Source: Patescibacteria group bacterium
Lineage (GTDB): Bacteria > Patescibacteriota > Patescibacteriia > Magasanikbacterales > GWA2-37-8
Direction: 5' to 3'
NCBI GenBank assembly: GCA_004321885.1
Contig: SCQK01000023.1
Coordinates: 1 to 8,335, forward strand
DNA: 8,335 nucleotides
Part shown: one piece after another, positions 1-8,335 of the stretch
Layout of the letters: each line of letters starts with the position of its first letter
Position numbering within the stretch: position 1 is the first letter of the stretch
Translations under genes and position numbers: made by a program
Notes under the pieces: model-generated
Told to the model about the DNA's origin: nothing
Databases searched by the model: none
What the model saw: only the letters and a program-made list of their open reading frames with translations

Positions 1-593
1 TAGGCTGGGAGGATCAGATAGGAAGGGTTCAGGACGATTCCATCCCCCCGGTTGAACCCATAGTAGGCTGGCAAAAGCAAGGTTCGGTTGTCCCAGGTGA
101 TTGCAAGGTGTTTTCTGATCCCCTCAACAATTTTGAGTCCCTCTGTCTTGTAGCCGATATCATCCCATTTGGCAGACGCCTTGAGGAGCGCATAGGCGAT
201 CAGCAGATCGCCGTCTGTTGCGTTGTTGTAGTCGATAATCCCCCAAAGGTCATTTGGCCTTTTGCCCCAGGCCCACACAAAGAGGTTGTCTTGCCTTGAC
301 TGTAGATTATTCTTTGTCCATTGCCAGATCTTGTGAAATGTGGCCCTGTCGTCATACAAGACGCTACTAAGCATCCCATAACCCTGGCCTTCCGAGTGGC
401 TGATGTGCATCTGTCGCTTATCGGTAACTCGACCATCAGCTTGAATGAACGTAGCCTTATACTGCTCCCAAAGCTTTTCAGCCTGAGCATTCGGCACTGG
501 CACCGATTGTGCCTGAGTATATGCAGGAGAGGCGAGCACCGCTAAAAGCACTGTGAGCAACCATATGTTAACCCTCAGAATCAGTCGGTGCAT
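1..593 (-). CDS. bcsZ: Endo-1,4-beta-D-glucanase, glycoside hydrolase family 8 (cellulose-synthase-associated BcsZ). N-terminal ~197 aa only; the gene continues past the window's left edge.
   Basis: The ORF track does not list this because there is no in-window stop. My minus-strand translation from the ATG at 591-593 has no stop codon down to position 1. The translation is MHRLILRVNIWLLTVLLAVLASPAYTQAQSVPVPNAQAEKLWEQYKATFIQADGRVTDKRQMHISHSEGQGYGMLSSVLYDD...NATDGDLLIAYALLKA...ILNPSYLILPA. It has a signal-peptide-like N-terminus. The GH8 catalytic signature (I)SHSEGQGYGM and the NATDGDLLIA block match E. coli BcsZ (WEQYKQQFISSDGRVID...ISHSEGQGYGM...NATDGDLLIALAL) as I recall it. A strong SD, AAGGAGG (revcomp of 601-607), sits 7 nt upstream of the ATG. 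The start overlaps the 3' end of bcsB by 26 nt. Confidence 0.82.
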   Translation of the reverse strand, partial: MHRLILRVNIWLLTVLLAVLASPAYTQAQSVPVPNAQAEKLWEQYKATFIQADGRVTDKRQMHISHSEGQGYGMLSSVLYDDRATFHKIWQWTKNNLQSRQDNLFVWAWGKRPNDLWGIIDYNNATDGDLLIAYALLKASAKWDDIGYKTEGLKIVEGIRKHLAITWDNRTLLLPAYYGFNRGDGIVLNPSYLILPA

Positions 594-2751
594 CCTTAAA
601 CCTCCTTGCCCTGTATCGCCTGAGGAGGTAGAAGAGGACCAGCCCCATGGCGATTATGACGACAGCCACCGCGATATAATAGAGCCACGGATAAAAAAAC
701 AGGTACCTGTCGATCAGGGAGACCTTCCCGGTCTTTCCTGAAAAATACCGTTTGCCAACCTGTAATGACGAAACGGTATAGTCCGGCGGCGAGAGATCGA
801 TCAGGACGAGGCCGCCTTCGGACTTCGATTGCACCCCAGGTTCGAGAAGCGCCCTGCTCAAAGTCTGTAGATCTTCAGAAGTTGCAGCCGTTGCGAGTAG
901 AACCGTGCGGCCCTCTGTGAATGGCGAGAGAAACTCCATCAGTACACCTTTACCAGGTTTGAACTCGCTGATCTGTTGGCTATAGGCCAGGGTGACCTCG
1001 TCGTTCCAGCTCCTGATGACCGGATGGGGCACGATAGTCTCTTTGGTCAGTGTCAGCGGGGCGGCCTTTTTATACGTCTCTGGGATGGTGTTGACTTCGC
1101 CTACAACGATCAGTTCGCCATCGAATCGTTTGGGATCTGTATACGTGACCTTTACCTCAATGAGGGGATAGCCGTTTTTCTGCGTCATCACGCCGATGAG
1201 GTTCAAAGCGGAATTGATCGTTGCTAAATTGTTATTCGTCAGGTAGATCATCGACTCGTGGCCATCCGGCCAGCGGGTAAATGGGAACCCGCTGAGCATC
1301 AGCAGCTCGATCCTTGGCAGATCCGTCAAATGTGGCATCGGCGGGAACAAGAGCGTTGAGTTTTCAAAGATGGTAATAAAGAGATTTGCGTCCTGTATGA
1401 ACTCGCAGGCTTTACCACTGGAGGGTGTCAAGACCGGCTCGAACCGGAAGATATTATCGCCCGGTTTGAACATGTAGGTCGGGACCTTGATCTTGTACCC
1501 TTCGATGGTGTCCCCCTTGCTATTGTCGAGATGGATGCCCCTCACCAGTTGCCCATTGAGGGAGATGTTCAGAGCCGAATCGGTGCGGAGGGCTGCACCA
1601 TAGGCAAAATACAGAGAGAGGTCAGCATAGATATTGGGTCTGACGAGAAAATCGGGTGGCAGACGGAAGGCTATCTCTAGCGATGATGGGTTAAGCCCTT
1701 TGAAGGTGTGAGATCGAACGTCCAGGTTTTTGAAAGTGTACTGTTTGTCCGGGGTGATGACGAGCCTCCCGCTGTACATCGTGATGTCTGGAAGGGTAAA
1801 TCCTGTGACCAGCATCTCGTCAGCGTTGGGAAGCGAAGTGGACATGATGGCAAACGTCTCGGCAGCTAGTTTCAGGTGGTCTGCGTTGAGACCTGAAACC
1901 ACGATAAGGGCATGGTTTGGGTCGACTCGTCCCTCGCCGCCTGGCAGGTGCAAGATCTTAAGATACGGTCCCTGAATCTCTGGTGGGCCGATACCCTTTG
2001 ACCTCAGGAAGCCTTGAACAAAGTCCCGGCTGCCTAGCAGGAAGTTGTCGGACCCTGGCTTTACCGTATCCGATACCGTGAAGGAGACCGGCCTGTAGTC
2101 AAACCGCCTTGCAACGCCTGATGCCAGGATGGCAGCGATCGTGAGCAGCTCGGAGTTGGTGTCTTTCAGGACGATATTGACCGCCCCCTGCGGGCTGATC
2201 TTCGGGTCGAACAACAGCCCGTTGATTGCAGGGAGTTTTAACGGGATGGGTTTGAGTGTGTAATCTACTTCGAAGAAGGCCTGATCCAACTTCAGCGTGG
2301 TCCAGAGGTCAGGGGCGCAGGGATTTTCACACTCGAGCGTATAGTGCTGTGAGACCTGAAAGCCAATCTTGTTATAACCAGGCTCCAATAAAAATGGCGG
2401 GATCGACAACCTGACCGACCCTTCTGGCGCTGACGGATTCAGGTTGACCTGCGCGACTGGATAGTCGTTGACCTTTAGCGCGAGCCTAGACTTGTTAGCC
2501 AGGAGGCCCGTCGAGTTGACGTAGTTAAAGCTCAGTACGGCCTTTTCAATCCTCCACCGCTCCGGTATGGGGATCATGAGGTTGTGACTCGCGTTGCTAC
2601 ACTTCAGATCGACGGTCTTCGCGGCGGTGAGTTTGTACAGGGGGATCCTGAGAACCTCGCCAGACACCTCCCCAGCCCAAGACAGGAGGAGCAAAAGTAA
2701 GGTAGAAGTCCACAACCTCATAAGCCGTTTCGTCATCCTCTGTCGCATCAT
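568..2751 (-). CDS. bcsB: Cellulose synthase periplasmic subunit BcsB (cyclic-di-GMP-binding protein family), 727 aa. The true start may be an internal Met at 2736 or 2721.
   Basis: 727-aa ORF in the track. It has an N-terminal signal peptide (MMRQRMTKRLMRLWTSTLLLLLLSWAGEVSGEV). A large domain with no further hydrophobic segments follows. A single C-terminal transmembrane anchor closes it (YLFFYPWLYYIAVAVVIIAMGLVLFYLLRRYRARRF) with a short charged tail. This is the characteristic BcsB architecture. Its position right after bcsA and before bcsZ fits. I find no convincing SD for any of the three candidate Met starts, so the start is uncertain. Confidence 0.8.
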   Translation of the reverse strand: MMRQRMTKRLMRLWTSTLLLLLLSWAGEVSGEVLRIPLYKLTAAKTVDLKCSNASHNLMIPIPERWRIEKAVLSFNYVNSTGLLANKSRLALKVNDYPVAQVNLNPSAPEGSVRLSIPPFLLEPGYNKIGFQVSQHYTLECENPCAPDLWTTLKLDQAFFEVDYTLKPIPLKLPAINGLLFDPKISPQGAVNIVLKDTNSELLTIAAILASGVARRFDYRPVSFTVSDTVKPGSDNFLLGSRDFVQGFLRSKGIGPPEIQGPYLKILHLPGGEGRVDPNHALIVVSGLNADHLKLAAETFAIMSTSLPNADEMLVTGFTLPDITMYSGRLVITPDKQYTFKNLDVRSHTFKGLNPSSLEIAFRLPPDFLVRPNIYADLSLYFAYGAALRTDSALNISLNGQLVRGIHLDNSKGDTIEGYKIKVPTYMFKPGDNIFRFEPVLTPSSGKACEFIQDANLFITIFENSTLLFPPMPHLTDLPRIELLMLSGFPFTRWPDGHESMIYLTNNNLATINSALNLIGVMTQKNGYPLIEVKVTYTDPKRFDGELIVVGEVNTIPETYKKAAPLTLTKETIVPHPVIRSWNDEVTLAYSQQISEFKPGKGVLMEFLSPFTEGRTVLLATAATSEDLQTLSRALLEPGVQSKSEGGLVLIDLSPPDYTVSSLQVGKRYFSGKTGKVSLIDRYLFFYPWLYYIAVAVVIIAMGLVLFYLLRRYRARRFKDAPTDSEG

Positions 2752-2915: not shown

Positions 2916-3923
2916 TCAATTCCCCCAGATTGAGCATGGACAGGTCTTACCGCACATGTGACAGTTGAAGTATCCTAGTAAGAGACTCTTCAAGAAACTG
3001 TGTTGCAATTCACCGATGAGCTTTCCTAAGACGTCATCGGCCTGATCGCCTCTGGCTTGGCAGGTGCCGGCATTGGCATGTCCTCCCCCTCCGTATTGTT
3101 CCAGAATCGTTCCGATATCCCTTCCGTATGACCTGTCAAGAATAGATTTACCTACCGCAAAAACAATCTTATCGCTATCTGAATCGGCAATAACCTGGAG
3201 GGAGACACTACACTCTGGAAACAGCGCATGGATCATAAACCGATTGCCAGGGTACATCACCTGTTCTTTTCGCATATCCGTGACGACCAGATTGAAATGG
3301 ACTGTAGCGCACCGGAGTAGCTGGGCCTTATACTGTTCTATACACGAAAAGTATAGATTGAGCCTCTCCTCTACGTCTGGCAGGTTTAGCACATCCCAGA
3401 TCGTATGGTCTCTACAATAGTCGACCAGTCTCATAATGAGTTCAGGGGTGGAGGTCGGAAATCGTTGAAATATTTCCAGGCCGGTTCGGTGATCGATGAG
3501 GTGATTCAGGAGCATCCAGCCGGTTGGATACAGGATATCATCGATGCCGATGTTCCCGCTAAAACCCTTGTCGACGGCCTTCAGCATATCAGGCGAGACG
3601 CGTCTAAAACGTTCTCGTCCATAATAGTTGTAAATCACCCGTGACGTTGAAGGCATCCTCTGATCGACAACGAGGTTCCTGGTCTTGCCTTTGATCTCAG
3701 ATCTGCTTGGGTAATGATCAAAGGCTAAGTGAGCAGTCTCTCTGTAAGGAAGTCCGGCCGTGATGTCGGAAGCCGCGATTGCTACCTTGCCACTCTCAAT
3801 GTCTTTTGGATGCGCAAAGGCAATCCGGTCGATGAGCGCCATCTCCTTGAGCAGGACGCCGCATGCGAGCCCATCGAAGTCGCGCTTGGTCACGAGTCTA
3901 TACTGTTGCTTGTCGTTCATCAC
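2916..3923 (-). CDS. DHH/DHHA1-family phosphoesterase, NrnB-like (COG2404-type: oligoribonuclease/nanoRNase or cyclic-nucleotide phosphodiesterase), 335 aa, with a Cys-rich C-terminal tail.
   Basis: The ORF starts GTG(3921-3923)-ATG(3918-3920) and overlaps the bcsA stop codon (TGA at 3920-3922). DHH motif I is KRDFDGLACGVLL; compare B. subtilis NrnB ..NDLDGVGCGIV.. as I recall it. Motif II is AIAASDIT. Motif III is LAFDHYPS, i.e. DHY instead of the canonical DHH. The DHHA1 signature is YGGGGHANAGTCQ (the GGGH-x2-A-x-G motif). The C-terminus ends ..GYFNCHMCGKTCPCSIWGN (C-H-x2-C-x3-C-x-C). Family assignment comes from motifs only. Substrate is unknown. Confidence 0.68.
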   Translation of the reverse strand: MMNDKQQYRLVTKRDFDGLACGVLLKEMALIDRIAFAHPKDIESGKVAIAASDITAGLPYRETAHLAFDHYPSRSEIKGKTRNLVVDQRMPSTSRVIYNYYGRERFRRVSPDMLKAVDKGFSGNIGIDDILYPTGWMLLNHLIDHRTGLEIFQRFPTSTPELIMRLVDYCRDHTIWDVLNLPDVEERLNLYFSCIEQYKAQLLRCATVHFNLVVTDMRKEQVMYPGNRFMIHALFPECSVSLQVIADSDSDKIVFAVGKSILDRSYGRDIGTILEQYGGGGHANAGTCQARGDQADDVLGKLIGELQHSFLKSLLLGYFNCHMCGKTCPCSIWGN

Positions 3924-6196
3924 GCCGCTTGCTCAAGCTTCCGCCTTCGGATGATGAGTTTGGCATAGGTTACTGGTACATGAAGAAGCCGCTTATAGGC
4001 AAGCAGGCTCACCGTGAAGCCCTTTCCCGCCATCTTGACAATAAACCAGAGCATCTTAAAGAAACTGACCTTCCTTGTTCGCTTGCTCCAGTAGTCCATC
4101 CATCGTTGACTGTCGCCGTATACAAATCGTGTCGCAGTCAGCCTCGCCTGTTCATCAGGGAGGATGAACTCGGTGCCGCATAGAAACATCTCTCCTCTTT
4201 TCACAAATCGCTGGATGCGGGCCTCTAAGCCGTATCGTCCGCCGTAGCTATCCCTGGCTTCCATAATGATGTGTTCCCGAGATGTTAAGGGAAACGGGAT
4301 GTGGAACAAGAGGCCAATCCCTGAAAGCGAGATGTCCTGGATACTGGCCTCTACCGTTATTTTCAGTCGTGGGAAAAAGACCGACAATTTGCCCTTGGCC
4401 CACATCCGGTGGTGGCGTCTTATCTGTCGTCTGTCAAGGAAGGCCCCTAAACCTGCCATGGACAGCAGCAGGTTATACAGGCACCAGACGAGGGCGATGA
4501 ATGTCGTACCCCGGTAAAGGGGGTATTTGAACCACTCAACGATAGCCGTCGGGATCGCGATGGTCAGCACAGTACACATGATGAGGAATGGGAGCGCGAG
4601 CCTGCTGAGATCGTCGCTCTCCAGAGTTTTGCCTTTAGGCGTGACCTTGAACGATGGCTTCCTTGGGTTGACCATGGCTGAAAAAACAACCGGCAGCAGG
4701 AACAGCGATTGGATACTCTCATGCAGATCGGACAGGAGCGGCCACCGGTACTTTCCATAAAAGAAATTTATCAAGATCATTGAGCACAGTAGATGTGGGA
4801 CGGCGTAGGCGAGCACCTGTGGGACAGAGGCATAATAGACATGCAGGCCAAGGAACAAAAAGGCTGCCGGCGCCAGAAGGAAGATAACCCTGGGGATGCC
4901 AAAGAACCAGTATAGGCCGTTGTTAAAATAGCACAGGCGCTGATAGAGCTTCAGCCCCTTTTCAAAGAGGGGATTCCTTAAGATCATGATCTGCGTCATG
5001 CCCTGGGCCCATCGGCTTCTCTGGAGAATCAGGTCATCGAAGGTCTCTGGAGAGAGACCGCAGACCATGGATCGAGCAATGTAGGCACTGTTGTAACCTC
5101 TTCGATGTAGCGCGTAGGCGGTTTCGCAATCCTCGGTAACAGTCTCTCCTGAAAAGCCACCGACCTCTTCCAGATACCTCCTTCTCAGGATGCCGGCCGA
5201 GCCGCAAAAAAAGCTGGCGTTCCAAAGGTCAAGACCGAGATGGCTGGCGCGGTAAAACAGCTCGCTCTCACTGGGCGCATCACGCAACGCCTCTACATTC
5301 TTTTCGACAGGGCTTGGATTGATGAAGAAATGTGGTGTCTGGACCATTGCAAGTTTTGAGTCTTTTATGAACCACCCGACGGTGTTTTTGAGGATGTCCC
5401 TCGCAGGGACATGGTCACAGTCTAGGATTAAAACGAGGTCTGAGGTCGTATGACGAATTGCGTGATTGATATTGCCGGCCTTGGCCCTCACATTCCTTTC
5501 ACGCGTGATGTAACTCACGCCGAGCGCTCTTGCCATCCGTCTTAAGGCATAGTGTCGTTCCCAGGCTGCCTGGGCAGTCTCGGGATCGTTCCGCTTCGCC
5601 ACCGTGGCGCCATCATCCAGGACATGGACCGTTAGTCGGTCTTTTGAATAGTCTATATTGAGCGCTGCTATAGCTGTCGTCTCGATGATGTCGAGCGGTT
5701 CGTTGTAGGTGGGGATGAAGACGTCAACAGAGGGGTACTTGGAGGTCTCTTCCGGCAATGGCATAATCTTCCTCTCCTGAGGCCATACGTTCACAAAGAT
5801 ATTCAGGAGATGGAGGACGATGGCATAGACCTCAGCCGCATAGATGAGGATCGTTCCACTGAAATCTAGCAGGCGTTCATAGATTAATGTCTCAGAGGTG
5901 CGCCATATCAGGTAGCGAATGTCCACAAAGACCGAGAGAAGGATAAACAGGAGCCTTAACGGCGGTCTTGTGAAGCGCGTGATCCTCTCGCAGATCAGTA
6001 ACGCAAGAACCGATCCCCATCCGACGATGAACTGCCCCGGCAAGGCTAGATAAAATTGCGCTAAGTGAAAAAAAAGATAGACCAGGATCGACACTCCCGC
6101 ATAGGTGATGCCCTTGGTCAATCGCTCCTGATCGGTCAGGAGATCGGTTATGAATGCGCGAAGCGTCTGTTTCGTGAGGGCGTAGGGGCGCGGCAT
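3920..6196 (-). CDS. bcsA: Cellulose synthase catalytic subunit BcsA (GT2 processive beta-glucan synthase with C-terminal PilZ c-di-GMP receptor domain), 758 aa.
   Basis: N-terminal TM helices are followed by a GT2 domain with all hallmark motifs: VLDDGATVA (DDG), ILDCDHVP (DCD), FFCGSAGILRR, TEDCETA (TED), QRSRWAQG (QxxRW). More TM helices follow, then a PilZ domain with RRHHR (RxxxR) and DISLSGIGL (DxSxxG). An in-frame stop lies 15 codons upstream of the ATG at 6194-6196, so this is the only available start. No clear SD precedes it. Confidence 0.93.
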   Translation of the reverse strand: MPRPYALTKQTLRAFITDLLTDQERLTKGITYAGVSILVYLFFHLAQFYLALPGQFIVGWGSVLALLICERITRFTRPPLRLLFILLSVFVDIRYLIWRTSETLIYERLLDFSGTILIYAAEVYAIVLHLLNIFVNVWPQERKIMPLPEETSKYPSVDVFIPTYNEPLDIIETTAIAALNIDYSKDRLTVHVLDDGATVAKRNDPETAQAAWERHYALRRMARALGVSYITRERNVRAKAGNINHAIRHTTSDLVLILDCDHVPARDILKNTVGWFIKDSKLAMVQTPHFFINPSPVEKNVEALRDAPSESELFYRASHLGLDLWNASFFCGSAGILRRRYLEEVGGFSGETVTEDCETAYALHRRGYNSAYIARSMVCGLSPETFDDLILQRSRWAQGMTQIMILRNPLFEKGLKLYQRLCYFNNGLYWFFGIPRVIFLLAPAAFLFLGLHVYYASVPQVLAYAVPHLLCSMILINFFYGKYRWPLLSDLHESIQSLFLLPVVFSAMVNPRKPSFKVTPKGKTLESDDLSRLALPFLIMCTVLTIAIPTAIVEWFKYPLYRGTTFIALVWCLYNLLLSMAGLGAFLDRRQIRRHHRMWAKGKLSVFFPRLKITVEASIQDISLSGIGLLFHIPFPLTSREHIIMEARDSYGGRYGLEARIQRFVKRGEMFLCGTEFILPDEQARLTATRFVYGDSQRWMDYWSKRTRKVSFFKMLWFIVKMAGKGFTVSLLAYKRLLHVPVTYAKLIIRRRKLEQAA

Positions 6197-6356: not shown

Positions 6357-7190
6357 CTATTTGGATGGTTCAGATGGGGGGGTGATGGTGTGTTGTTTCG
6401 TTCTGGTCTCCTCGGCCCTCTCGGGTTTCGTGCCTATTCCTTTAAAGAGAACGAAGAGGAGGATCAAGATAGGGATCAGGACGAGGAGGATTTTCATCAC
6501 TGGTGACGCACCCGCCTTCTCTTGGGTCTGGACGGGTGCTTTATCGGTCAGGTCACGTTCGACCTCTTTTGGGTTCCAAAACGCCTTATAGACATTCACG
6601 GGCTCTTTTTTGCCTTTGAGGCTGGTCGTCTTGAGGAACCGGCAGTAGACCTCTGACTTGTCGGCCAGAGCATTATAAGTCTCTTCAGAACAACAGATTT
6701 CGCCAGGACTTGCGGACGATTCAAAGCGTGAAGCGGTATTGACTACATCGCCGAATATATCGTCCTTCTCGATGATGCATTTGCCGGTATGCAGGCCGAT
6801 ACGCATCAGGATAGGGGTCTTCAGTTGTTTGGTCAGGTTCAATTCATCGATGCCCTTTTGTATCTGAACGGCCGCTCTCAGACCGTCCTGCGCATGCTCA
6901 AAATGGGATAGAGTCCCGTCACCAATCGTCTTGACCAACACCCCGTTATGACGTTTGATGATGGGGAAGACGATATCGTTATGGTGTTTGATCAGCATGC
7001 GGGCCGAGAGATCGCCTTCAGCCTCTGCAATGGAGGTTGAGCCTTTCAGGTCAGTGAACATGACGGTGAGTATCTTGGTGAACTTCTCCTGAAAAAGGGT
7101 CTCCATCTGTTCCCTTTGTTCAAGATACTGCTCGATGTCTGAGCGGTCCTGGTCGTCCCCTTGTCTCGTTTCGGCATCATCTGGTGACAT
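6357..7190 (-). CDS. Class III nucleotidyl cyclase (CHD domain), predicted adenylyl cyclase. It has an N-terminal acidic/coiled-coil segment, a central catalytic domain, and a single C-terminal transmembrane helix (tail-anchored).
   Basis: The track ORF starts at TTG 7196. I prefer the ATG at 7188-7190 because a GAGGAGG SD (revcomp of 7200-7206) lies 9 nt upstream. CHD motifs: VMFTDLKGST (metal-binding Asp), LVKTIGDG (second Asp; Lys at the purine-specifying position, as in KTIGD of adenylyl cyclases versus ETIGD of guanylyl cyclases), RIGLHTG, DDIFGDVVNTASR (Asp at the second specificity position, cf. DIWG in mammalian AC C2). No GGDEF or EAL motif is present. The C-terminal hydrophobic stretch MKILLVLIPILILLFVLF is followed by the Lys/Arg-rich tail KGIGTKPERAEETRTK. 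Confidence 0.85.
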   Translation of the reverse strand: MSPDDAETRQGDDQDRSDIEQYLEQREQMETLFQEKFTKILTVMFTDLKGSTSIAEAEGDLSARMLIKHHNDIVFPIIKRHNGVLVKTIGDGTLSHFEHAQDGLRAAVQIQKGIDELNLTKQLKTPILMRIGLHTGKCIIEKDDIFGDVVNTASRFESSASPGEICCSEETYNALADKSEVYCRFLKTTSLKGKKEPVNVYKAFWNPKEVERDLTDKAPVQTQEKAGASPVMKILLVLIPILILLFVLFKGIGTKPERAEETRTKQHTITPPSEPSK

Positions 7191-7211
7191 CGTCAAGACC
7201 CTCCTCGTAGA

Positions 7212-7410: not shown

Positions 7411-7743
7411 TCACTCCGGTCTCTTCCCTTCCCGAGACGAAGCAGCCGGGAATGCCTTCACCGAAAGATCTTGGCCGATGTGGCACTGCAAGCAAACATA
7501 ATTGCGCGTCGGATGCGGGACGATCGGAGCCCCGGCGAACCCTTTTTCGTGGCAATCCAGGCAGGCTCCTTTCCTCCTTTCCACATCGTGGGGGATCAAA
7601 GGCGGGGCGCCTTTATAGGCACGAGGCAGTTTCTTGCTGCCTTGTTTGGGAGCACCCTGTTCAGAAAGCGCGCTCCCGCTCAGAGTAACGAGTAAGCACA
7701 AGAGAAAAATACCTCCAAAAGAATATTTCTTGAGTGACTTCAT
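7411..7743 (-). CDS. napB: Periplasmic nitrate reductase diheme cytochrome c subunit NapB, 110 aa.
   Basis: Signal peptide MKSLKKYSFGGIFLLCLLVTLSGSALS. NapB hallmark APPLIPH (E. coli QPPMIPH). Two CxxCH heme-binding motifs, CLDCH and CLQCH (E. coli has CLQCH twice). SD AGGA (revcomp of 7749-7752) sits 5 nt upstream of the ATG and overlaps the napA stop. It lies 9 nt downstream of napA. Confidence 0.85.
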   Translation of the reverse strand: MKSLKKYSFGGIFLLCLLVTLSGSALSEQGAPKQGSKKLPRAYKGAPPLIPHDVERRKGACLDCHEKGFAGAPIVPHPTRNYVCLQCHIGQDLSVKAFPAASSREGKRPE

Positions 7744-7752
7744 GATTATCCT

Positions 7753-8335
7753 TTACACTTTCTCGATCCGAACTGCGCATTTCTTAAAGTCTGGCTGCTT
7801 GGAAATAGGATCGTAGGCATCAAGCGTCACCAAATTGATGAGGACATTTTCGTCGAAGAACGGTACAAAGACCACGCCTTTCGGGACCGTATTTCTGCCG
7901 CCTATTTGAGCCTTTGTGACGATCTCCCCGCGGCGCGATTGGACACGAACCGAATCCCCAGTCTTGATTCCCAAGGCGCCTGCGTCCTCGGAGCTGATCC
8001 ACACAGGAGCAAAGGGGACGGCACGGTGCAACTCAAGGACTCTCCTCGTAATGGTCCCTGTATGCCAGTGCTCAAGGACGCGACCTGTCGTGAGCCACAA
8101 AGGATATTGCTTATCGGGCTGCTCGGCTGGCGGCTCGTAGGGCCGTGCCCAGATCACGGCACGACCATCAGGCTGGCCGTAAAAACGGACGCCTTCACCC
8201 TGCTTGACGTACGGGTCGAAGCCCTCCCGGTACCGCCACCGTGTTTCTTTGCCCTCGACAACCGGCCAGCGCAGCCCGCCACGGACCTTCGCGTACACAT
8301 CATAGGGCGCGAGATCTTTTCCCGACCCCTCGCCG
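7753..8335 (-). CDS. napA: Periplasmic nitrate reductase catalytic (molybdopterin) subunit NapA, C-terminal ~193 aa. The gene start lies beyond the window's right edge.
   Basis: The reading frame stays open from 8335 down to TAA at 7753-7755. The track's Met at 8298 is an internal GTG, not the start. The C-terminal sequence ..[66 protein letters not shown] closely parallels the E. coli NapA C-terminus (..[65 protein letters not shown]) as I recall it. Confidence 0.9.

Follow-up and report, generated by a model that had tools for sequence, protein, structure and literature searches.

The 8,335 nucleotides of contig SCQK01000023.1 (assembly GCA_004321885.1, Patescibacteria group bacterium), referred to here as the window, carry genes for bacterial cellulose synthesis (bcs), with an additional gene inserted between bcsA and bcsB. 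We call this open reading frame (ORF) X. All genes of interest in the window are on the minus strand, where a class III nucleotidyl cyclase gene is followed by bcsA, X, bcsB and the 5' part of bcsZ; the features are summarized in Table 1. An original prediction, made from the sequence alone, had placed an ORF between bcsA and bcsB with a start overlapping the bcsA stop, and this was confirmed: the TGA stop codon of bcsA overlaps both candidate start codons of X, GTG and ATG, within GTGATGA. Residues of X are numbered from the ATG start. Positions named after the homologue PggH (N55, H68, H69, D121 and so on; see below) are distinguished from the numbers of the window protein (G56, H69, Y70 and F120, respectively).

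Table 1. Features of the window, and positions of the cyclase genes in the corresponding operons of other loci
Feature	Position (strand)	Evidence or remark
X, PggH-like DHH/DHHA1 protein with degenerate metal site	2916..3923 (-)	ORF, phmmer, AlphaFold2 model and Foldseek
X, length from GTG	2916-3923 (-)	335 aa
X, length from ATG	2916-3920 (-)	334 aa
bcsA stop/X start overlap, GTGATGA	3917..3923 (-)	TGA 3922-3920, GTG 3923-3921, ATG 3920-3918
Gly56 codon, position of PggH ligand Asn55	3753..3755 (-)	Gly in 69/71 of the bcs-linked clade, Asn in 34/34 canonical
Asp68-His69-Tyr70, DHH degenerated to DHY, Tyr at PggH His69	3711..3719 (-)	Tyr codon 3713-3711
Phe120 codon, position of PggH ligand Asp121	3561..3563 (-)	Alignment; D121A inactive (PMC8861645)
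Clade-specific C-terminal extension of X, ELQHSFLKSLLLGYFN	2964..3011 (-)	Consensus LKY[GS]xLKNLFxGYFN
Lineage-specific Cys-rich end of X, CHMCGKTCPCSIWGN	2919..2963 (-)	After the GYFN motif, window X
Relic of ancestral tail-coding sequence, TTACCAGTACCGGTTAG	~2870-2901	Equivalent to YYQYR*; ~15-45 nt downstream of the X stop
bcsA	3920..6196 (-)	TIGR03030, 801 bits; GT2 and PilZ domains
bcsB	568..2751 (-)	PF03170, 369.7 bits
bcsZ (GH8), 5' part	1..593 (-)	tblastn with GH8 proteins of L002 and L003
Class III nucleotidyl cyclase, tail-anchored	6357..7196 (-)	PF00211, 82 bits
napB-like gene, small di-haem cytochrome	7411-7743 (-)	
napA, 3' end (molybdopterin-binding domain)	7753-8298 (-)	
Cyclase genes at other loci	L002 505-1338; L003 161-994; L084 6914-7729; L090 6718-7527; L088 6903-7685	

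The domain libraries hardly recognized X. Pfam DHHA1 (PF02272) matched with an E-value of 0.005 and 17.7 bits, under its gathering cut-off of 25.9 bits, Pfam DHH (PF01368) and NCBIfam gave no match, and most homologues of X are likewise without a precomputed Pfam domain. By the Pfam scores, the DHH/DHHA1 domains of the original prediction would not stand, but these scores are overridden by homology at the level of structure, which bore out the predicted fold. A phmmer search against the PDB sequences returned one overwhelming match, 7d62 (PggH of Vibrio cholerae), with an E-value of 5.5e-84 over residues 6-305. The AlphaFold2 model of X, built with 40 homologues, had a mean predicted local distance difference test score (pLDDT) of 89.5 and a predicted template modelling score of 0.85, and contained a long inter-domain helix (residues 181-204). 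When this model was searched with Foldseek, it matched 7d62_A with a template modelling score (TM) of 0.94, a root mean square deviation of 2.0 Å and 46% identity, whereas the other DHH/DHHA1 structures (DhhP, GdpP, TM1595, NrnA, RecJ, Cdc45 and family II pyrophosphatases) reached 9-16% identity and a TM of at most 0.53. The likeness to PggH thus extends over the full length in sequence and fold, including the rigid helical linker that joins the DHH domain to the DHHA1 domain. Since the PDB and fold searches were decisive, the sub-threshold Pfam and NCBIfam results were not counted as absence of homology, and we regard the DHH/DHHA1 ancestry of X and its place in the PggH family as practically certain. 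The label 'NrnB-like' given earlier is imprecise, because both identity and TM to proteins of the NrnA, NrnB and GdpP types are low and PggH is the nearest characterized relative. The names that databases attach to the homologues of X ('exopolyphosphatase', 'nanoRNase/pAp phosphatase' or hypothetical protein) include annotations, 'exopolyphosphatase' and 'nanoRNase', which are probably wrong for the bcs-linked clade.

PggH (VCA0593) is a DHH/DHHA1 phosphodiesterase whose specific substrate is pGpG, formed as the linear product of EAL phosphodiesterases; no other enzyme has been described as pGpG-specific (PDB 7d62; Heo et al. 2022, PMC8861645). Its Mn2+ ligands are D15, N55, H68, H69 and D121, and D13 and D67 belong to the second shell; the mutants of D13, D67, H68, D121 and H282 are all inactive, H68A and D121A abolishing activity, and the D121A protein still binds pGpG with its binding barely affected (PMC8861645). 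The 3' guanosine of pGpG is held by R146, N227 and R228, among which N227 reads guanine-specific groups, and the 5' guanine is held by H282 of the GGGH motif (PMC8861645). In the alignment with PggH, X retains two of the five Mn2+ ligands, D15 and H68, and has substitutions at the other three (N55G, H69Y and D121F) as well as at R11 (by K). The window protein has all the residues that contact pGpG, numbered R145, N226, R227 and H281.

The replacements are clade-wide. We counted residues in the best 120 database homologues (clustered at 90% identity), of which 119 were full-length, and these fell into three groups: 34 canonical sequences, a degenerate main group of 71 and a degenerate subclade of 14, named 'GNYY' here. 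The canonical sequences are invariant for N, H, H and D at positions 55, 68, 69 and 121 of PggH, and the GNYY subclade is equally invariant for G, N, Y and Y. The degenerate main group has G at position 55 in 69/71; H (49), Y (18), R (2) or S (2) at position 68; Y (57) or F (6) at position 69, that is, an aromatic Y/F in 63/71; and F (34), V (12), I (7), Y (7), A (3) or S (3) at position 121. The pocket residues of the same group are largely retained (R146 in 69/71, N227 in 66/71, R/K228 in 68/71 and H282 in 67/71). Positions 68 and 121, which are dead as alanine in PggH, drift here among residues that do not bind metal, a signature of a lost metal site. It is therefore likely, as far as the alignment can tell, that X is catalytically inactive. 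In a neighbour-joining tree the canonical sequences formed a monophyletic clade apart from both degenerate groups, and the shared G55, Y69 and C-terminal tail argue for a common origin of the latter. When sequences were clustered at 50% identity, the bcs-linked clade collapsed to essentially one representative (P0014); it is a compact, young-looking family. Non-canonical metal sites also occur in other lineages of the wider PggH-like family: of 70 full-length representatives at 50% identity, about half deviate at one or more of the Mn2+ ligands. The wider family also contains a 631-aa tandem of two degenerate modules with the pattern RDNGNYYA[T/I] (P0121) and canonical modules to whose N-terminus an extension of about 300 aa is fused (P0122, P0123, P0127 and P0131; 593-694 aa).

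The genomic context of X was gathered in three ways: by exact-protein lookups, by scanning one genome from each species (with flanks of up to 10 kb) and by a metagenome scan seeded with an N-terminal alignment and the clade-specific pattern DITAGLPY (flanks of up to 7 kb). The bcsA-X-bcsB arrangement recurred in related genomes, in line with the original prediction, with 16 distinct bcsA/X junction sequences from several phyla, in which X starts from -4 nt (where ATGA overlaps) to +18 nt relative to the bcsA stop. A 99% identical protein (P0001) is encoded in the same arrangement on an independent contig (L001) which spans both junctions, so the window is not a chimeric contig or assembly artefact. 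The window protein itself has no exact match on record, and P0001 and other homologues stood in for it. More distant homologues are found in longer versions of the operon. The order is cyclase-bcsA-X-bcsB-GH8-bcsC for P0003 (75% identical) and P0005 (68%), cyclase-bcsA-X-bcsB-GH8-TPR-bcsG for P0035, and cyclase-bcsA-X-bcsB-bcsG followed by a GAF-HD_5 gene for P0041 (Elusimicrobia, L084); on the chromosome of Trichlorobacter ammonificans (P0076, L088), a cyclase-like gene is followed by bcsA-X-bcsB-GH8-SPOR/TPR-bcsG, with X at 58697-59650 of OW150024.1 as derived from the L088 coordinates. The taxa carrying X thus include Nitrospirota (L004), Elusimicrobiota (L084) and Trichlorobacter ammonificans (L088), in addition to metagenomes. 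In the Elusimicrobia locus (L084 13149-17328 and 19490-19900), the operon goes on with bcsG, an unassigned gene of 256 aa and the GAF-HD_5 gene (HD-GYP type), and a cyclic nucleotide monophosphate-binding protein is encoded nearby. Several X-type operons contain bcsG where no bcsE or bcsF gene was called.

The state of the metal-site motif and the bcs context went together without exception in the sampled loci. The genome scan gave at least 80 loci, with 79 canonical (N/H/D) and one degenerate among the matches listed. The predominance of canonical loci is due to the GGGGH pattern, which both types share, and these loci served as a negative control. The sole degenerate locus, from Nitrospirae bacterium GWB2_47_37 (L004), has the order cyclase-bcsA-X-bcsB, and none of the 79 canonical loci had a BcsA, BcsB or cyclase match in its flanks of up to 10 kb. 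The metagenome scan gave 29 loci: 14 degenerate, 14 canonical and one from an unrelated degenerate lineage on a short contig (L113). Within the reach of its contig, each of the 14 degenerate loci shows bcsA immediately upstream of X, bcsB immediately downstream of it, or both, and the 14 canonical loci have no bcs genes in flanks of up to 7 kb. Pooled, a BcsA, BcsB or cyclase match was found in the flanks of 0/93 canonical loci among the matches listed, while all loci of the degenerate type with enough flanking sequence (L001-L004, L084-L085 and L088-L105) have bcsA upstream and/or bcsB downstream. Note that these loci are partly redundant: one contig appears as both L004 and L097, and L084/85, L088/89 and L090/91 form pairs. 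The gene is thus located with bcsA and bcsB, and in their orientation, across divergent genomes, and there is very little doubt that X is a genuine component of the bcs operon. In the GNYY subclade (P0062 and P0065, from Planctomycetes and the anammox bacterium Kuenenia), X follows a DUF6271-like gene and not bcsA (loci L086 8797-10957 and L121 8565-10999). The DUF6271-like/X pair of Kuenenia is divergent from a bcsA-bcsB-GH8-TPR operon located 1-3 kb away, and at the Planctomycetes locus there is a bcsA gene on the opposite strand, at a distance of about 8 kb. A sequence search of the PDB found no relative of the DUF6271-like partner. The Kuenenia bcsA is split into genes of 250 and 491 aa.

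Selection on X was examined by the ratio of non-synonymous to synonymous substitution rates (dN/dS) against the orthologues in L002 and L003. The ratio for X (0.18) is close to those for bcsA (0.19-0.21), bcsB (0.18-0.28) and the cyclase gene (0.15-0.18), and in more distant operons the amino acid divergence of X tracks that of BcsA and BcsB. X is under purifying selection and diverges in parallel with its neighbours; it is functional, has been inherited vertically with the rest of the operon and is not a decaying insertion.

Both degenerate groups have a conserved aromatic C-terminal extension, some 15-20 residues long and of the form L(K/R)Y(G/S)x(L/F)KNLFxGYFN(YY), whereas the canonical PggH-type proteins stop about 15 residues earlier, at ITADG, without the tail. 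Beyond residue 310 of the AlphaFold2 model the pLDDT falls from 70 to 34, as expected for a peptide which folds on a partner or a membrane, and we propose that the tail may be a docking or membrane-interface element. The window protein continues past GYFN into a lineage-specific Cys-rich end, and a relic of the ancestral tail-coding sequence persists downstream of its stop codon (Table 1), indicating that the 3' end of X has undergone local duplication or insertion. The Cys-rich end and the downstream relic are also present in the independent contig L001.

The cyclase gene is directly upstream of bcsA in nearly all operons with X inserted between bcsA and bcsB. The catalytic set of the encoded protein is intact (FTD, KTxGDG and DIFGDxVNxxSR), and its Lys/Asp pair indicates specificity for ATP. 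The protein also has a C-terminal transmembrane segment and a short conserved RTKQH tail. The homologue from Trichlorobacter (31% identity) has lost the catalytic residues. In the literature searched, no description of a bcs-associated cyclase was found.

The PilZ domain of BcsA has both the RxxxR (RQIRR) and the DxSxxG (DISLSG) motifs. The start of bcsZ overlaps the end of bcsB, about 26 nt ahead of the bcsB stop, and bcsZ runs past the edge of the window; its product is 75-76% identical to the GH8 proteins of L002 and L003 (tblastn, E 1e-92 to 1e-97), so the operon continues as in those loci, with bcsZ and then bcsC. The 164-nt spacer between X and bcsB has no riboswitch or other RNA element by an Rfam search of the whole window (E <= 1), a terminator scan found no terminator from X to bcsB, and the promoter and terminator scan of the window gave nothing over the shuffle expectation. 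The bcs module finds its closest named relative in Nitrospirae bacterium GWB2_47_37 (58-64% identity). The 3' end of napA and the napB-like gene are close together, upstream of the cyclase and bcs genes, and the nap genes are the sole taxonomic or physiological hint within the window. Compared with L003, BcsB is 88% identical (L003 4576-6750; synonymous divergence, dS, 0.24) and BcsA and X are only 72% identical (dS 0.84-0.88), which suggests recombination or mosaicism within the operon.

Together, these results lead us to favour, with modest confidence, the view that X is a paralogue of PggH which has turned into a non-catalytic, guanine-dinucleotide-binding accessory subunit of BcsA-BcsB. 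X would then be cytosolic and supplied in step with BcsA by translational coupling, and would use its new tail to dock on the synthase from the cytosolic side or on the membrane. There it would bind a guanine dinucleotide without cleaving it, so that the output of the synthase or the local nucleotide pool might be tuned by the state of c-di-GMP (cyclic di-GMP) turnover. The likeliest ligand would be pGpG, since each of the four residues that contact it in PggH has been kept, which makes it the simplest candidate; c-di-GMP would be possible. We thus take X to be, in all probability, a subunit of the synthase with a regulatory or sensing role, undescribed so far, and not a hydrolase; for nucleotide sensing in particular, our doubts slightly outweigh our confidence.

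Several points weigh against this interpretation. The acidic residues D13, D15, D51 and D67 are nearly invariant in the clade and the Tyr at position 69 is strongly conserved, as if the site had been remodelled and not eroded, and a remodelled site could still bind metal or another ligand. The loss of activity is extrapolated from mutants of a homologue with 46-52% identity. The ligand could be another than pGpG, for example c-di-GMP, GMP or the product of the adjacent cyclase. Moreover, in a subclade of five proteins (P0005, P0006, P0018, P0024 and P0044), N227 is replaced by Y, R228 by W in 3/5, and GGGH is partly lost (GWGGH, GGRGD and NGEGH), and P0005 is nevertheless encoded between bcsA and bcsB (L003 3470-4513), so nucleotide binding is not indispensable for retention in the operon. 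This subclade is close to the window protein.

Such a loss of pocket residues speaks for an alternative in which X is a purely structural or scaffolding subunit, which would assemble or stabilize BcsA-BcsB, perhaps with the cyclase, without depending on the binding of a nucleotide. The conserved tail would suit a contact with protein or membrane, and a precedent exists in Cdc45, a catalytically dead subunit of the replisome with a DHH fold. We consider this alternative rather unlikely, as the four pGpG-binding residues are kept in about 90% of the clade, which is hard to explain without a ligand.

It is unlikely that X is an active phosphodiesterase which clears pGpG or another nucleotide locally by means of a remodelled site of D14, D16, D52, D68, H69 and Tyr70. 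X is a close homologue of a pGpG-specific hydrolase, with the substrate-binding residues and the four acidic residues kept and, in the window protein, H68 of PggH as well. However, three Mn2+ ligands out of five have given way to G, Y and F, the residues at positions 68 and 121 change freely within the clade between types that are not ligands, and canonical PggH proteins with invariant ligands were linked to bcs genes in none of the 93 loci among the matches listed. The connection with pGpG made in the original prediction was therefore well founded, PggH being the closest characterized homologue, whereas the mechanism of local clearance by hydrolysis is probably wrong (N55G, H69Y and D121F). 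The other role suggested there, hydrolysis of the product of the adjacent cyclase, found no support for the same reasons, the replaced ligands and the variable positions 68 and 121. Nor was there support for an assignment to NrnB/COG2404 or for a cAMP/cGMP phosphodiesterase.

The cyclase itself could be the partner of X. If X sensed its product, probably cyclic AMP (cAMP), or regulated the tail-anchored cyclase, the synthase would have a second nucleotide input, and the gene upstream of bcsA in nearly every X locus, mostly catalytically intact, would be accounted for. This is very unlikely, however, in that X conserves the guanine-reading N227, the Trichlorobacter cyclase is degenerate while the pocket residues of its X are kept, and the GNYY locus L086 has X with no cyclase match in the fetched flanks. 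Finally, there is virtually no chance that X is an artefact or a decaying remnant, that is, the product of a chimeric contig or of the chance insertion of a PggH pseudogene, as the failure of Pfam and NCBIfam and the degenerate catalytic motifs might suggest: it is refuted by conservation (an intact ORF under purifying selection, with 85 full-length homologues of the same signature in the best 120) and by synteny (at least 16 distinct junctions in several phyla and the independent, 99% identical contig).

X does not correspond to a named bcs subunit in the literature we searched, as the original prediction had held. The catalogue of bcs subunits by Romling and Galperin (2015) reportedly lists no DHH-family member. 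Our full-text searches found no paper linking PggH, DHHA1, nanoRNases or pGpG to bcs operons, a 2021 review of Bcs systems does not mention DHH proteins, phosphoesterases, pGpG or nucleotidyl cyclases (PMC8892547), and neither the NrnB paper nor the nanoRNase review mentions PggH or cellulose. The operon described here, cyclase-bcsA-X-bcsB-bcsZ-bcsC(-bcsG), is a previously uncatalogued bcs architecture, from poorly studied phyla, and with X inserted it departs from the rule of an adjacent or fused bcsA and bcsB. The novelty would be that a known enzyme family has given rise to a pseudoenzyme, which an already known secretion system has taken up as an undescribed accessory: a clean case of the passage from enzyme to pseudoenzyme subunit through loss of metal ligands, gain of a docking tail and capture by an operon.

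The intermediate pGpG feedback-inhibits EAL phosphodiesterases, and to our knowledge no protein is known to sense it as a signal. With its pocket kept, its metal site lost and its gene coupled to that of the c-di-GMP effector BcsA, X is a concrete and testable candidate for a pGpG receptor. That X is the first dedicated pGpG receptor, a pseudo-phosphodiesterase subunit of the synthase which together with the cyclase-like protein defines a new type of Bcs system, is a tentative and still doubtful extension. If it were true, the synthase would integrate c-di-GMP (through PilZ), c-di-GMP turnover (pGpG through X) and possibly cAMP, in Nitrospirota, Elusimicrobiota, Geobacterales and Planctomycetota.

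Comparison with known systems places X nearest to PggH, with which it has D13, D15, D67, H68, R146, N227, R228 and H282 of GGGH in common. It differs from PggH in the residues at the Mn2+ ligand positions N55, H69 and D121 (G, Y and F) and in K for R11, in the conserved aromatic tail present only in X, and in the location of its gene inside a bcs operon, where none of the 93 canonical loci among the matches listed has bcs genes in its fetched flanks. The nanoRNases NrnA and NrnB and the phosphodiesterases GdpP, Pde2 and DhhP share with X the superfamily and the GGGH nucleotide-binding motif, at 10-16% identity and a TM of 0.33-0.52; unlike X, these are active enzymes without a link to bcs, in which the DHH motif is complete and the inter-domain linker flexible. 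Cdc45, whose structures were among the distant Foldseek matches of the model, and the RecJ homologues of the GAN type resemble X as DHH-family folds that serve without catalysis as structural subunits of a larger machine, but have 9-14% identity, belong to another cellular system and have no link to a nucleotide second messenger. A functional analogy, without homology, is provided by BcsE of the E. coli-type (type II) Bcs system. No BcsE gene was called in the X-containing loci of P0003, P0005, P0041, P0076 or P0035. BcsE is also a cytosolic accessory encoded in the operon; it is a c-di-GMP sensor built on degenerate REC/GGDEF-like modules, with a GIL domain that binds c-di-GMP, whereas X has the DHH/DHHA1 fold. 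Like the role proposed for X, that of BcsE is to give BcsA a second nucleotide-sensing input by means of catalytically degenerate modules of nucleotide enzymes (background in part from PMC8892547).

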